DNA of 45,130 bases from Bacteroidaceae bacterium (GTDB lineage Bacteria > Bacillota > Clostridia > Oscillospirales > Oscillospiraceae). Within the stretch, counting starts at the first letter, position 1, and each line of letters starts with the position of its first letter. The DNA lies in the NCBI GenBank assembly GCA_963649625.1, contig CAVJIP010000169.1:1-45130 (forward strand), in the 5' to 3' direction. Shown piece after piece: positions 24,422 through 32,043 of this stretch. The position numbers and the translations under genes are program-made. The notes under the pieces are model-generated. The model was not told the origin of the DNA. It saw only the letters and a list, made by a program, of their open reading frames with translations, and searched no databases.

Positions 24422-24450
24422 TTTACATTTTGCTTTTAGAACAGTATAAT
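24422..24450 (+). promoter_or_regulatory. Promoter (TTTACA-17-TATAAT) driving the PurA-like gene and possibly the atp operon
   Basis: TTTACA at 24422-24427 and TATAAT at 24445-24450. Confidence 0.5.
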
Positions 24451-24529
24451 GTGTCCGATTAAAAAAAGCAACTATAAAAGCGGCGGATTTTTCCAAACGG
24501 GAGCCGCCCGGGCAGAAGGAGGCGGGGCC

Positions 24530-25864
24530 ATGCTCACCGCAGTCGTGGGTATCAACTGGGGTGACGAGGGAAAGGGCCGCATTGTGGATTTGCTGGCAGC
24601 GCAGGCCGATGTGGTGGTGCGCTGCCAGGGCGGCAGAAACGCCGGTCATCGGATGACCACCTCCGCCGGGAACTATGTGTTTGATTTGCTGCCTGCCGGA
24701 CTGCTGCACCCCCGGGTGGTAGGCATTCTGGGCGGCGGCATGGTGGTGGATTTGGATCATCTCCGGCATGAGCTGTCCATGATGTCCTATTTTCAGATAC
24801 CAATCAGTCCCGACAATTTGAAGCTGTCCAGTCAGGCCGCCATCTGTATGCCCTTTCATATCCGGCAGGAGGTACTGGAGGAAGATCGGCTGCGCCAGGG
24901 CGGCGGCTATGGCTCCACCCGGCGGGGAATTGCCTATGCCTACGGGGATAAATACCTGAAAAAGGCCCTCCGGCTGGGGGATCTGCAAGCCCTGGACAGT
25001 CCCGAGGTACGACAGCGTCTCCGGGAGATTCTGGACAGCAAAAACCTGGTACTGACCAAAATTTATGGACAGCAGCCCCTGGGAGAGGACGAGGCCCTCC
25101 AGTGGTGCCGGGATCAGGCCGCCTTCTTTTCCCCCTACATCTGCCACACCGGGGCCTATCTCCGGCAGGCGGTACAGGAAGGAAAAAACATCCTTTTGGA
25201 GGCCCAGCTGGGTGCGCTCCGGGACATTGACTACGGCATCTATCCCTATACCGCCAGCTTTCACACCCTTTCCTCCGATATGCCCCTGGGGGCGGGCATT
25301 CCCGGGGTCCGGCCGGATCATGTGGTGGGGGTCATAAAGGCCTATTCCACCTGCGCCGGAGAGGGCCCCTTCCCGGCAGAAAAGGTTATGCCGGAGCCCT
25401 GGAGTCGGCGGCTTCGGGACATGGGCGGGGAATACGGCCCCGCCACAGGCCGGCCCCGGCGGACAGGGCCCTTTGACGTGGTGGCCAGCCGGTACGGCAT
25501 CCGGTGCCAGGGCCCGGATCAGCTGGCCCTTACAAAGCTGGACGTGCTCAGCGGTCTGGAGGAGCTGCCGGTGATCACCGGCTATCTGCTGGCAGGAAAA
25601 CCCCTGGACAGCTTCCCCACAGGCCCGGAGCTGGAGCAGGTTCAGCCGGTAGTGGAAACGCTGCCAGGCTGGCAGGAGGACATCTCCGGCTGCCAAAGCT
25701 GGCAGAGCCTGCCCCGGCAGGCAAAGGAATATGTTCTGTTTCTGGAGCGGCAGCTGGGCACCCCATTCCACATGATTTCCGTGGGAACGGGCCCGAATGC
25801 CTGGTTTCCCCGCAAGGCGGGCAGCTGGGTGTTCCAAGAGACAGAGGAGAGGAGTAAGCCATGA
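24530..25864 (+). CDS. Adenylosuccinate synthase family protein (divergent PurA paralog)
   Basis: The real start is probably ATG 24530 (MLTAVVGINWGDEGKGRIVD), 7 nt after GAAGGAGG. GDEGKG, NAGH, KAYSTxxGxGPFP, TGRxRRTG and TKLDVL are retained, while several substrate-site motifs are altered (see findings). The stop overlaps the atpB start (ATGA). Confidence 0.85.
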   Translation: MLTAVVGINWGDEGKGRIVDLLAAQADVVVRCQGGRNAGHRMTTSAGNYVFDLLPAGLLHPRVVGILGGGMVVDLDHLRHELSMMSYFQIPISPDNLKLSSQAAICMPFHIRQEVLEEDRLRQGGGYGSTRRGIAYAYGDKYLKKALRLGDLQALDSPEVRQRLREILDSKNLVLTKIYGQQPLGEDEALQWCRDQAAFFSPYICHTGAYLRQAVQEGKNILLEAQLGALRDIDYGIYPYTASFHTLSSDMPLGAGIPGVRPDHVVGVIKAYSTCAGEGPFPAEKVMPEPWSRRLRDMGGEYGPATGRPRRTGPFDVVASRYGIRCQGPDQLALTKLDVLSGLEELPVITGYLLAGKPLDSFPTGPELEQVQPVVETLPGWQEDISGCQSWQSLPRQAKEYVLFLERQLGTPFHMISVGTGPNAWFPRKAGSWVFQETEERSKP

Positions 25865-26682
25865 AGCATAAAAAATTCCTGGTACTCTGGGTTCTGGTGA
25901 TGGCAGGGCTGCTGATTGCAAGCCTGCTGCTCCCCGGCGCAGACAAACAGGAAACCATCCAGGAGGCCATGCGGGACGCAGTGCTCCACGAAAGTGGCCG
26001 CATCCGTCTGTTTGGCCTAAAGAACGTAAATCCCGGGCTGATTTCCGGGCTGGTCGTGACCGGTTTTTTACTGATTGCGGCGGCGCTGATCCGCATCTTC
26101 GCCATTCCCCGGTTCAAGCTGGTGCCCGGAAAATTCCAGCTTCTCCTGGAGCAGCTGGTAAACACCTTTGACGGGCTGGCAAAAAGCAATTCCCCCCATC
26201 GGAACGGATTTCTGGGGGCCTATATCTTCGCCGCCGGCGTGTACATCTTTGTGGGGACACTTTTTGAGCTGTTCGGTGTCCAGGCTCTCAGCATCAGCGG
26301 CAGCTCCGTGACCCTTCCGGCCCCCCTGTCGGATGTAAACGGGGCCATTGCCCTGGGCTGCCTGTCCTATTTGATTATTCTCTCCGGAGGTATCGCCGGA
26401 AACGGATTCCATGGGGTGGGGGCCACCTTAAAGGAGTTCTCCCTGCCCATTTCCATGAGCTTTCGTCTGTTCGGCGCCCTGCTCAGCGGCCTGCTGGTGA
26501 CGGAGCTGATCTACTATTATATTCAGCTGAGCTTCGTGCTGCCGGTGCTGGTGGCGGTGCTGTTTACCCTGCTCCACGCCCTGATTCAAAGCTATGTGCT
26601 GACCATGCTCACGGCTCTGTTCTACGGCGAGGTGTCTCAGCCCAGGGAAAAGAAGAAAAAACAAGTAAAAAAGATTGCGTAA
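25861..26682 (+). CDS. atpB: F0F1 ATP synthase subunit a
   Basis: 273 aa. The essential Arg motif is SMSFRLFGALLSG, followed by the C-terminal helices. There is an N-terminal extension with an extra hydrophobic segment. Confidence 0.9.
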   Translation: MKHKKFLVLWVLVMAGLLIASLLLPGADKQETIQEAMRDAVLHESGRIRLFGLKNVNPGLISGLVVTGFLLIAAALIRIFAIPRFKLVPGKFQLLLEQLVNTFDGLAKSNSPHRNGFLGAYIFAAGVYIFVGTLFELFGVQALSISGSSVTLPAPLSDVNGAIALGCLSYLIILSGGIAGNGFHGVGATLKEFSLPISMSFRLFGALLSGLLVTELIYYYIQLSFVLPVLVAVLFTLLHALIQSYVLTMLTALFYGEVSQPREKKKKQVKKIA

Positions 26683-26700
26683 AAATTGGAGGTCTTTCTG

Positions 26701-27063
26701 ATGAAAAAGCTGAAATTGAAAATCCCCGCTATCCTGATGTTGGTCATTATGGTGATGGCCCTGGCCGTTCCCGTGCTGGCAGCCAACCAGGGGGAAACCG
26801 CCGCCGCCACGGAGACCGTTGAAACCACCCAGGACAGCGGCACCAACGCAAAGGCCATTGCCGCCGCCGTGGCCATCGGTCTTGCCGCCGCAGGCGGTGC
26901 CATCGCCATGGGCATGGTGGCCGGAAAGTCCGCAGAGGGCATCGCCCGTCAGCCGGAGGCCCAGGACAAAATTCGTACCACCCTGATGCTGAGCCTGGTG
27001 TTTATCGAGACTGCGATTATCTATGCGCTTCTGGTTGTTATTCTGATTATCTTCGTACTATAA
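26701..27063 (+). CDS. atpE: F0F1 ATP synthase subunit c with a signal-peptide-like N-terminal extension
   Basis: ATG 26701 lies 8 nt after GGAGG. The C-terminal ~75 aa form the c hairpin ([13 protein letters not shown] loop; carboxylate in FIETAIIY). The N-terminal ~45 aa are [47 protein letters not shown]. Confidence 0.9.
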
Positions 27064-27069
27064 AGGCAG

Positions 27070-27570
27070 GTGCGGATCGTGAACATCCCATTGAATATTG
27101 ACTGGCAGCAGATCCTCCTGCATCTGCTGAACTTCGCCATTCTGGCGGGGGGATTGTATCTGCTGCTGTATAAGCCTGTGAAGGAGTTTATGGCCAAGCG
27201 GGACGCCTATTACAAAAATGAGCATGAGTCCGCCGCCCAGGATCGGGCGGCGGCGGAGAAGCTGAAGGTCGGCTATGAGGCACAGCTAAAGCAGCTGGAG
27301 ACGGAACTTCAGGAAAAGCGAAACGCCGCCCAGCAGGAACTGGAGGCCTATCGTCAGGCCCAGCGGAAGGATGCCCAGGCCCAGGCCGATCAGCTTCTGG
27401 CAGAGGCCAAGACTGCAGCCCAGCGGGAGCATGACAAAATGCTTGCCGACAGCCAGCAGGAGCTGCGGGATTTGGCGGTAACTGCCGCCGAGAAGCTGCT
27501 GCTGGGACAGGAGCAGGATCCCTATGAGCAATTCCTCCGGAAGGCAGAGGAGGGCGGCAAGGATGCATGA
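27070..27570 (+). CDS. atpF: F0F1 ATP synthase subunit b
   Basis: 166 aa. One N-terminal TM (LLHLLNFAILAGGLYLLLYKPV) is followed by a long Ala/Glu/Gln/Lys-rich helix. GTG start (27079 is an alternative). Confidence 0.85.
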   Translation: MRIVNIPLNIDWQQILLHLLNFAILAGGLYLLLYKPVKEFMAKRDAYYKNEHESAAQDRAAAEKLKVGYEAQLKQLETELQEKRNAAQQELEAYRQAQRKDAQAQADQLLAEAKTAAQREHDKMLADSQQELRDLAVTAAEKLLLGQEQDPYEQFLRKAEEGGKDA

Positions 27571-29317
27571 GAAAAAAACGGCTGTGCTAAGCGCAGTCCT
27601 TCGGGGCAGCAAGGCCCCTACGGAGGCCCAGCGGAATCGGTTCCAGACCTTTTTGGAGTCCCGCTATGGCCGCCCTGTCAGGCTGACCTTCCAGGCGGAT
27701 CCCGCCCTCACCGGCGGCCTGGTGCTGGAGGCCGGTGACGATGTATATGACTGGAGCCTGGAGGGCCGTCTGCGCCAGTTCCAGGAGCGTCTGGAGCAGC
27801 TCAGGCCCCAATCGGAGAAAATCATTCCCCTGATGAAGGAGGCCGTGGAGAACTGGGCCCCGGAGGTGCTGGCCCAGGAAACCGGCGAGGTGCTTACGGT
27901 GGGGGACGAAATCGCCACCGTGCGTGGCCTGCCCCATGCGGCCTACGGAGAGATTTTGCTGTTCTCCTCCGGGGTCAAGGGCATGGTGCAGGAGCTGCGG
28001 CGGGAGGAGCTGGGCTGTGTGCTGTTCGGTGACGGCAGCCAGATCGCCCAGGGCAGCATTGTCCGCCGCACCGGCAAAACCGCAGGGCTTCCTGTGGGAG
28101 AGGGCTTTCTGGGCCGTGTCATCAACGCCCTGGGAGAGCCCATTGACGGCGGCGGGGACATCAAGGCAGATGGCTATCGTCCCATTGAAAACCCCGCCCC
28201 CGGCATTATTGACCGTCAGCCGGTGAACACCCCCATGGAGACGGGTCTGCTTTCCATTGATGCCATGTTCCCCATTGGTCGGGGGCAGCGTGAGCTGATT
28301 ATCGGCGACCGGCAGACCGGTAAAACCGCCGTGGCCCTGGACACCATCCTAAATCAGAAGGGCAAAAACGTGGTGTGCATCTATGTGGCCATCGGGCAGA
28401 AGTCCTCCTCGGTGGCTCAGCTGGTAGAAAACCTAAAGGCCCGGGGTGCCATGGACTATACCATCGTGCTTCACGCACCGGCCAGTGCCTCGGCCTCTCT
28501 CCAGTACATTGCCCCCTACGCAGGCTGCGCCATGGGCGAATACTTTATGTATCAGGGGCGGGATGTGCTCATCGTCTATGACGATTTGTCCAAGCACGCC
28601 ATTGCTTACCGGGCGCTGAGCCTGCTGCTGGAGCGTTCTCCCGGCCGTGAGGCCTATCCCGGCGATGTATTCTATCTCCACTCCAGACTGTTGGAACGCT
28701 CGGCCCATCTGTCGGACGCTCTGGGCGGCGGCAGCATGACCGCCCTGCCCATTGTGGAAACTCAGGCCGGTGACGTGGCGGCCTATATTCCCACAAACAT
28801 CATTTCCATCACCGATGGACAGATTTTCCTGGAAAGCGACCTGTTCTTCTCTGGCCAGCGTCCCGCCGTCAACGTGGGCATCAGCGTGTCCCGGGTAGGC
28901 GGCGATGCCCAGACAAAGGCCATGAAGTCCGCCGCCGGGGCCATCCGGCTGGATCTGGCCCAGTACCGGGAGATGGAGGTCTTTACCCAGTTCTCCAGTG
29001 ACCTGGACGATGCCACCAAGCGTCAGCTGCAATACGGTCAGGGGTTGATGCGTCTGCTGCGGCAGTCCCAGTATCATCCCTACAGCCAGCATCAGCAGGT
29101 GATTCTTCTGGTGGCGGCCCTGAATCGGCTGCTTCTTCAGGTGCCGGTGGGAGACATCAACACCAGGGCCTCGGAGCTGCTTACCCATGTGGAGCAGGCC
29201 GCCCCGGAGCTGTGCCGCCGCATTGACGAAAGCGGGGCGCTCAGCCAGGAGGATCGGAGCCAAATCCTCTCTCTGGCCAAGGCCTTCCTCCAGCCTGACG
29301 AAAAGGGCGGTGGCTGA
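27563..29317 (+). CDS. atpA: F0F1 ATP synthase alpha subunit with an N-terminally fused delta (OSCP) C-terminal domain
   Basis: ATG 27563 overlaps the atpF stop by 8 nt. Residues 1 to ~85 resemble the delta C-terminal domain (VRLTFQADPALTGGLVLEAGDDVYDWSLEGRLRQF). The rest is full-length alpha (Walker A GDRQTGKT, ETQAGDV). The frame is continuous, with no stop. Confidence 0.85.
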   Translation: MHEKKTAVLSAVLRGSKAPTEAQRNRFQTFLESRYGRPVRLTFQADPALTGGLVLEAGDDVYDWSLEGRLRQFQERLEQLRPQSEKIIPLMKEAVENWAPEVLAQETGEVLTVGDEIATVRGLPHAAYGEILLFSSGVKGMVQELRREELGCVLFGDGSQIAQGSIVRRTGKTAGLPVGEGFLGRVINALGEPIDGGGDIKADGYRPIENPAPGIIDRQPVNTPMETGLLSIDAMFPIGRGQRELIIGDRQTGKTAVALDTILNQKGKNVVCIYVAIGQKSSSVAQLVENLKARGAMDYTIVLHAPASASASLQYIAPYAGCAMGEYFMYQGRDVLIVYDDLSKHAIAYRALSLLLERSPGREAYPGDVFYLHSRLLERSAHLSDALGGGSMTALPIVETQAGDVAAYIPTNIISITDGQIFLESDLFFSGQRPAVNVGISVSRVGGDAQTKAMKSAAGAIRLDLAQYREMEVFTQFSSDLDDATKRQLQYGQGLMRLLRQSQYHPYSQHQQVILLVAALNRLLLQVPVGDINTRASELLTHVEQAAPELCRRIDESGALSQEDRSQILSLAKAFLQPDEKGGG

Positions 29318-29318
29318 T

Positions 29319-31632
<2,314 letters not shown>

Positions 31633-31633
<1 letters not shown>

Positions 31634-32043
31634 TGGAGCTTTTTCAGGTCCATATTTTGGCGGCGGATGAGGCCTTCTATGAGGGCCCCTGTCAGTCTCT
31701 GTCCGTTCCCTGCTCTACAGGAATGGTGGGGATTCTGGCCCATCACAGCAATATGATCGCCGCAGTGGTGCCGGGGATCCTTCACTATCAGTGCCAGGGA
31801 CAGCCGGAGCAGCTGGCCGCCGTATCCGCAGGACTGGTAAAGGTGGAAAATGGGGTTGTGCTGATTCTGGTGGACTCTGCGGAGCGGCCGGAGGAAATCG
31901 ACGCCAACCGGGCCCAGCGGGCAGCGGATGCGGCCAAGGAGGCCCTGCTCCAGAAAAAGAGCATTCAGGAGTATCGAATGGCCCAGTCCAGTCTGGCCCG
32001 GGCCATCAGCCGGCTCCAGGTCAAGAGCATTTCCAGAAAATAA
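31633..32043 (+). CDS. atpC: F0F1 ATP synthase subunit epsilon
   Basis: 136 aa. A beta-sandwich N-terminus plus a C-terminal helical pair. The start overlaps the atpD stop (TAATG). Confidence 0.9.

Follow-up and report, generated by a model that had tools for sequence, protein, structure and literature searches.

This analysis concerns the F1Fo ATP synthase (atp) operon on a 45,130-nucleotide (nt) stretch of DNA from a member of the Oscillospiraceae (contig CAVJIP010000169.1; the whole stretch is called the window here), and in particular its gene for subunit α, which is fused to a part of subunit δ. Open reading frames (ORFs) were defined by their coordinates, and domains were assigned by Pfam and NCBIfam profile searches. 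The genes lie on the + strand in the order a-c-b-[δCTD-α]-γ-β-ε, where δCTD is the C-terminal domain of δ, and the operon is otherwise a canonical F-type atp operon. Its features, beginning with the fusion, are as follows.

27563..29317, + strand: fusion ORF of 584 codons (584 amino acids, aa), δCTD plus complete α
27563..27793, + strand: δ/OSCP C-terminal (b-binding) domain, fusion residues 1-77; assigned from Pfam OSCP, an AlphaFold2 (AF2) model, Foldseek, and the ratio of nonsynonymous to synonymous substitution rates (dN/dS)
27794..27811, + strand: short linker, residues 78-83; the stretch covered by neither the δ nor the α profile match
27812..29317, + strand: complete F1 α, residues 84-584 and stop codon; NCBIfam atpA TIGR00962 and α chains of the PDB
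27548..27553, + strand: Shine-Dalgarno sequence AGGAGG of the fusion, 9 nt upstream of ATG 27563
27070..27570, + strand: atpF, subunit b, 166 aa (a normal length); Pfam ATP-synt_B on residues 15-144
25861..26682, + strand: atpB, Fo subunit a, 273 aa; Pfam ATP-synt_A PF00119, E-value 1.3e-18, same position conserved in related loci
26686..27063, + strand: atpE, Fo subunit c precursor; ATP-synt_C on residues 58-121 of a 125-aa ORF, probable start ATG 26701 (120 aa)
29319..30224, + strand: atpG, subunit γ; Pfam ATP-synt PF00231, E-value 5.4e-89
30221..31633, + strand: atpD, subunit β; ORF and translation, 72-94% identity in related loci
31633..32043, + strand: atpC, subunit ε with C-terminal helical domain; Pfam ATP-synt_DE_N and ATP-synt_DE

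Profile searches divide the fusion protein into two parts. Pfam OSCP (PF00213) matches residues 8-77 with profile positions 102-172 of 172 (E-value 6.5e-12, 46.3 bits, cut-off 22.3), and positions 1-101 of this profile, which represent the N-terminal helical bundle of δ, have no match in the protein. The first 86 residues match only the last ~70 positions of about a dozen NCBIfam δ models, and they score 38 bits against the full-length δ model TIGR01145, below the cut-off of 57.5. The OSCP match is followed by the α domains ATP-synt_ab_N (PF02874, residues 105-171), ATP-synt_ab (PF00006, 228-443), and ATP-synt_ab_C (PF00306, 450-575). NCBIfam atpA TIGR00962 aligns with residues 84-576 over profile positions 4-498 of 503 (725.7 bits, cut-off 484.45), and α chains in the PDB match the protein with E-values down to 1e-188. 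The segment SEKIIPLMKEAVENW, which an earlier reading of this DNA from its letters (the sequence-only reading) had lined up with the N terminus of Bacillus α, was placed there again when HMMER was run against the sequence from Bacillus PS3. These matches bear out the proposal in that reading of a δ C-domain joined in frame to a complete α, and its description of the locus was accurate in every detail that could be checked. From these results, we conclude that the protein is a δ C-terminal domain in frame with a complete F1 α, that the δ N-terminal bundle is absent from it, and that each α made from this gene bears a δ C-domain.

The stop codon of subunit b (TGA 27568-27570) overlaps the fusion start (ATG 27563) by 8 nt, as had been reported before, and there is therefore no coding room for the δ N-terminal bundle. 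The assigned start is preceded by the AGGAGG sequence listed above, and several homologues have their first start at the equivalent codon. Use of an alternative in-frame ATG at 27524 would add 13 residues and would still leave the protein without a δ N-domain. ORF and profile searches agree with the sequence-only reading that the operon contains no atpH. The genes flanking the operon are not conserved among related loci, and therefore no accessory gene stands out as a substitute for the δ N-domain.

The fold of the N-terminal part was assessed with an AF2 model of residues 1-105 built with 32 homologous rows, which was taken in place of a poor full-length model left out of the fold comparison. 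This model predicts a strand at residues 9-15, a helix at 21-35, strands at 39-45, 53-57, and 60-63, and a helix at 66-80, the last of the δ part, followed by coil at 81-86 and the α N-terminal helix at 87-96, with pLDDT values of 81-90 across residues 11-70. The modeled piece has the sheet and helix make-up described for δ C-domains, namely a four-stranded sheet and two helices (PMC12002316). When it was compared with the PDB by Foldseek, the 46 best matches were all C-terminal domains of δ, OSCP, or b-δ proteins (probability 1.00, TM score ~0.55-0.61). In solved structures, the N-terminal helix of α and the extreme C terminus of b both contact the δ C-domain. Residues P89, L90, and P100 in the α N-terminal helix of the fusion are invariant and the extreme C terminus of subunit b is conserved as a DPYEQFL motif, both of which fit a retained α-δCTD-b contact. 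Across 81 sequences, the linker is nearly constant in length and variable in sequence, as would be expected of a structural tether more than of a protease site.

The distribution of the fusion was examined by a pattern scan with one genome per species, in which the 80 best loci of 572 confirmed stretches were inspected; these 572 stretches do not equal 572 fusions, as one of the two search patterns sits in the α barrel. The δ N-domain is missing from 77 of the 80 best loci, which share the same junction and operon, and the order a-c-b-[fusion]-γ-β-ε is found in every one of the 80 with enough flanking sequence. The window protein aligns across the junction of the related loci in a single segment, and the fused ORFs are uninterrupted, with 573-624 codons between stops in most cases, and start within a few bases of the b stop. 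The three exceptions are a locus cut by a contig end (L058), one that retains only the last δ helix (L075), and one in which a full-length δ is fused to α (L079). The carriers are labeled Oscillibacter, Oscillospiraceae, Ruminococcaceae, Faecalibacterium, Anaeromassilibacillus, Christensenellales, and assorted "Clostridia" metagenome-assembled genomes (MAGs), and two of them are cultured isolates, Faecalibacterium sp. An122 (L041) and Anaeromassilibacillus senegalensis An867 (L010). The 120 best database homologues range from 565 to 588 aa, and precomputed Pfam assignments give a four-domain architecture with OSCP in all of them except P0149; one database protein is 100% identical to the window protein. 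A word-indexed protein search with 120 residues gave only fragments of <200 aa, in which the junction is conserved and which are unsuited to counting. A search of 1.84 billion representatives also returned mostly fragments, and its match counts are no estimate of family size because full-length fusions were probably clustered with ordinary α subunits.

The comparison of related operons that the sequence-only reading had proposed found the same fusion, and it excludes the assembly indel that this reading had suspected. An assembly or sequencing artefact, in which a truncated atpH ran on into atpA through an indel or the loss of a stop codon, has nothing in its favor except the prior that MAGs contain errors. 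Against it stand the identical in-frame junction in these 77 species-level genomes, polished isolate assemblies among them, the >100 independent database proteins of 565-588 aa that share the junction, and the lack of room for a δ N-domain between b and the fusion. The comparative data already refute this explanation, and its probability is negligible.

The δ part of the fusion has a dN/dS of 0.04-0.30 in 10 of 13 locus pairs (the other three gave no usable value, dN or dS being zero or dS saturated), and dN/dS of the adjacent α barrel is 0.02-0.23. The low values indicate that the δ part is maintained by purifying selection. Based on these results, the fusion is real, conserved, under selection, and translated from its own strong ribosome-binding site.

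A second δ was sought by six-frame phmmer with the full-length δ from L079 and the δ of Escherichia coli as queries. No δ-like sequence was found outside the fusion ORFs in the 45-kb window or in all 80 loci (~1.2 Mb), within the limited sensitivity that single-sequence phmmer has for the fast-evolving δ N-domain. If a full-length δ were encoded elsewhere in the genome, it could cap the real stalk and leave the fused domain as an accessory or a remnant. The reach of the search, which covered the window and the related loci, and the rapid divergence of δ N-domains, which makes them hard to detect, leave some room for such a gene. Besides the negative search of the window and the related loci, however, the fused domain is under purifying selection, the b C terminus is conserved, and three fused δ C-domains would compete with a free δ for the b2 dimer, so that we regard a separate δ as very improbable.

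The sequence-only reading was not aware of a description of this architecture, but it is already published: Ueno et al. ([quoted passage not shown] bioRxiv 2024; Nat Commun 2025; PMC12229609) built the exact fusion, tested it experimentally in this engineered form, and cited natural fusions from another lineage. Their rationale was that the δ N-domain lies on the pseudo-threefold axis and thereby restricts the enzyme to one stalk (PMC12229609). In the enzyme of Bacillus PS3 they deleted δ residues 2-104 and joined residues 105-178 to α through a GSGG linker, and the product contained 2.4-fold more a and 2.0-fold more b per γ than the wild type (PMC12229609). [quoted passage not shown] The covalent tether that the sequence-only reading had proposed in place of the clamp between the δ N-domain and α is seen in the cryo-EM structure of this engineered equivalent (PMC12229609). 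That reading had also raised a 3:1 stoichiometry problem, for which there is now a published experimental answer: each fused α can dock its own b2 stalk and a-subunit because the δ N-domain is no longer on the symmetry axis.

The window protein closely resembles the engineered chain (δΔN-α, PDB 9jc1). Both consist of a δ C-domain, a short linker, and an α from its first residues (584 and 580 aa, respectively), both are without the δ N-domain, and both come from operons without a free δ. The two are colinear, with window residues 31-565 aligned to residues 26-564 of chain 9jc1_I (E-value 7e-180); this chain also ranks first in the PDB for residues 1-160, in an alignment that crosses the junction. 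The window protein differs in being natural and in having a linker that is 3 residues shorter and not GSGG; in addition, the window ε keeps its C-terminal domain and the window c bears an N-terminal presequence.

The natural fusions to which Ueno et al. pointed, and for which they predicted multi-stalk enzymes, are Acidaminococcus fermentans UniProt D2RLW6, together with G4Q3K6 and A0A1I2C5T3 (PMC12229609). By description, these proteins share with the window fusion a missing δ N-domain and a C-domain fused to α within the atp operon, and they differ in lineage, Acidaminococcus there and Oscillospiraceae and relatives here. A full-text literature search found no paper besides Ueno et al. that mentions natural δΔN-α fusions, and the breadth of carriers observed here (77 of 80 best species genomes) was not reported in the literature searched. 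The window fusion thus belongs to a different and much larger lineage than the natural cases noted previously.

A mixed α population would offer another way around the 3:1 stoichiometry. Internal initiation or proteolysis of the linker could yield free α, and perhaps a free δ fragment of 80 aa, and so restore one δ for three α subunits. The window protein does have an in-frame Met91 and a GTG at residue 95 with a weak AGGA 4 nt upstream. Among the 81 sequences, however, an in-frame ATG, GTG, or TTG with a Shine-Dalgarno core near the α N terminus occurs in 11, within the range of 5-25 of 81 in control windows, so that internal initiation of α is unsupported. No internal start with a Shine-Dalgarno site is conserved at the α N terminus in this set, and many relatives have Ile, Leu, or Phe in place of Met91. 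For proteolysis, no conserved cleavage site is evident in a linker that keeps its length and not its sequence, and the uncleaved engineered fusion works (PMC12229609). A mixed population is accordingly very improbable, and even when internal initiation or cleavage, a free δ, and an artefact are taken jointly, they remain unlikely.

The arrangement suggests the following mechanism. With δ reduced to its C-terminal b-binding domain, this domain would be permanently tethered through a linker of ~6 residues to the N-terminal helix of every α. The normal δ N-terminal bundle on the threefold axis would permit one stalk only; once the bundle is gone, a b2 dimer could dock on each of the three α subunits. 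Two or even three peripheral stalks, each with its own a-subunit, would then be possible in the native enzyme, and the additional stalks and a-subunits would raise the H+/ATP ratio and let ATP be made at low proton-motive force, a property that would be useful to a strictly anaerobic fermenter. From the engineered PS3 fusion, which recruits up to three stalks, we infer that the native complex may do likewise. We put the probability at roughly 0.5 that each of the three α subunits is able to dock a b2-a stalk and that the native complex has more than one stalk and a raised H+/ATP ratio.

Several observations weigh against this multi-stalk interpretation. The operon has one a gene and one b gene in the normal order, and nothing in the sequence calls for additional stalks. 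The engineered enzyme lacked the ε C-terminal domain and was produced by over-expression in E. coli, so that native stoichiometry could differ, and part of the engineered particles were single-stalked (PMC12229609). The full-length AF2 model is poor (mean pLDDT 54.8), and the geometry of the junction is therefore not fixed by it. Finally, the search for a free δ spans only the 45-kb window and ≤20 kb around each related locus.

The first of these points, together with the canonical gene set, would also describe a single-stalk enzyme, in which the tether replaces the clamp between the δ N-domain and α, one δCTD holds b2, the other two stay empty, and the H+/ATP ratio is ordinary. Such an enzyme would require no new assembly rules, and single-stalk particles do occur with the engineered fusion (PMC12229609). 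On the other hand, in the sole experimental test, that in PS3, no further alteration was needed to recruit about two b2-a stalks, and as many as three, and nothing in the window operon is known to block the same outcome. We consider a single stalk a plausible outcome of somewhat less than even probability.

Other rotary ATPases provide partial parallels to the window enzyme. The F1Fo enzyme of Chloroflexus aurantiacus is a natural F-type enzyme with two stalks and two a-subunits, in which an altered δ, with a shortened N-domain that dimerises, allows more than one stalk (PMC12002316). The Chloroflexus δ C-domain is the second-best PDB sequence match to window residues 20-77, but this δ is free-standing, its shortened four-helix N-domain dimerises atop F1, and it is not fused to α. 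In mycobacterial b-δ (PDB 7jg5 chain d), which is the best PDB match for the window δ C-domain in both sequence and fold, δ is likewise covalently attached to another stator subunit; there, however, the full δ including its N-domain is kept, the partner is b, and the enzyme has a single stalk. In A/V-type ATPases, each stalk docks on the N-terminal region of the non-catalytic B subunit, the homologue of α. These enzymes have two or three EG stalks that attach separately to the catalytic head, and the space above the head is empty (PMC12002316). Separate attachment of stalks to the head would be common to these and the window enzyme, and A/V-type enzymes differ in having unrelated stalk proteins E and G, a single a-subunit, and an unfused B.

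N-ATPases have no atpH and carry a δ-like C terminus on a long b, AtpF(N) (Dibrova et al. 2010, PMC2881411). They share with the window enzyme the absence of the δ N-domain and a δ C-region covalently placed on a neighboring stator subunit, and positions 178-244 of the profile TIGR03321 match window residues 10-76. The fusion partner in N-ATPases is b and not α, and their operon has the order atpDCQRBEFAG, with AtpQ and AtpR. The membership in this group that the TIGR03321 match raised was rejected on the basis of the window operon order, the score of the window α against the N-ATPase α model TIGR03324 (621.9, below the cut-off of 750.5), and a 166-aa b without a δ-like tail.

Some of the related loci depart from the common arrangement. 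L079 (9734-11761, CAJUQO010000018.1, a mouse-gut MAG) contains a 675-aa ORF in which a full-length δ (OSCP 22-172) is fused to α, in an operon that is otherwise canonical, a(228)-c(72)-b(167). A full-length δ and an α barrel in one ORF are also found in four independent database fragments (P0205, P0274, P0306, and P0310). Full-length fusions of the L079 type may represent an evolutionary intermediate in which fusion preceded loss of the N-domain, and in L079 the 3:1 stoichiometry problem appears in its sharpest form. Three further loci (L073 9830-, L076 5349-, and L078 354-) have ~50 extra N-terminal residues before the δ C-domain, with no match to the OSCP N-domain; these residues could be what is left of the bundle or a newly acquired extension. 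In L075 (6689-8263, CAVJQN010000142.1), the α ORF is ~525 aa from the first ATG (529 codons between stops), the δ C-domain is reduced to its last helix, and OSCP is undetected; the explanation is either complete loss of δ in this lineage or a deletion or misassembly in the bin. The closest relative of the window operon (70-94% protein identity) is held by L001 (CAVJLG010000004.1), which is titled Barnesiella intestinihominis (Bacteroidota), a label that is likely to reflect bin contamination or mislabeling.

Subunit c of the window operon has an N-terminal extension of ~50 aa, and its probable start is preceded by GGAGG at a distance of 8 nt. The extension begins with positive charges, followed by ~20 hydrophobic aa that end in a motif resembling a signal peptidase site (VLA/AN, VFA, AFA), and an acidic Thr/Ala-rich spacer separates this signal peptide-like part from the canonical hairpin. 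An extension of this kind is present in every locus that lacks the δ N-domain and has a complete c gene (c length 111-172 aa), whereas in L079, where δ is still complete, c has an ordinary length of 72 aa. The hairpin was aligned by hand to the c subunit of Ilyobacter tartaricus, which presumably places Met at Q32, Glu at E65, Thr at S66, Ala at T67, and Tyr at Y70. Two Na+ ligand positions would thereby be lost, which suggests that the window c ring couples H+ rather than Na+.

The window also carries the housekeeping genes purA, lepA, groEL, and uvrB, and the operon itself is the organism's housekeeping F1Fo ATP synthase. The GroEL encoded in the window shares 93% identity with a GroEL labeled Oscillospiraceae. 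The start of atpB overlaps the stop of the adenylosuccinate synthetase gene (24449-25864) by 4 nt (25861-25864), there is no atpI at the operon, and an Rfam scan of the window matched no RNA family. Subunit a of the window (273 aa; median of relatives, 280 aa) is N-terminally ~45 residues longer than that of L079 (228 aa).

Annotation of the fusion is inconsistent. One of the full-length homologues carries the NCBI name "F0F1 ATP synthase subunit alpha [Ruminococcus bromii]," and of the database proteins P0122 and P0157, the full-length fusion MDD7645828.1 is called "F0F1 ATP synthase subunit alpha" and a fragment of another, MDD6238665.1, "F0F1 ATP synthase subunit delta, partial." Pathway reconstructions would call atpH missing because the fusion is labeled inconsistently as α or as "delta, partial."

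A broader and still tentative proposal is one to which we give less than even confidence: the fusion would be the standard ATP synthase arrangement of an entire order of abundant gut anaerobes, the Oscillospirales (including Faecalibacterium), and of Christensenellales, and these enzymes would natively have two or three stalks and a-subunits and act as natural high-H+/ATP machines for very low proton-motive force. The fusion would have arisen through a full-length δ-α intermediate that survives as the L079 type, and it would have co-evolved with the presequence-bearing c.

The H+/ATP ratio was long believed to be fixed by the size of the c ring alone. In 2025, the engineered PS3 enzyme and the natural enzyme of Chloroflexus showed that this ratio can be multiplied by additional stalks and a-subunits. 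To this, the present analysis adds a broader set of carriers, selection on the δ part, evidence against internal initiation, a possible evolutionary intermediate in the form of a full-length δ-α fusion, and a co-occurring c presequence. The engineered design has a natural counterpart in dozens of species of gut Clostridia, some of them culturable, including relatives of Faecalibacterium, and the culturable carriers are accessible native material in which to test for triple-stalk F-ATP synthases in nature. Should the enzymes prove to be multi-stalked, the ATP yields estimated for major butyrate-producing gut bacteria would have to be revised.

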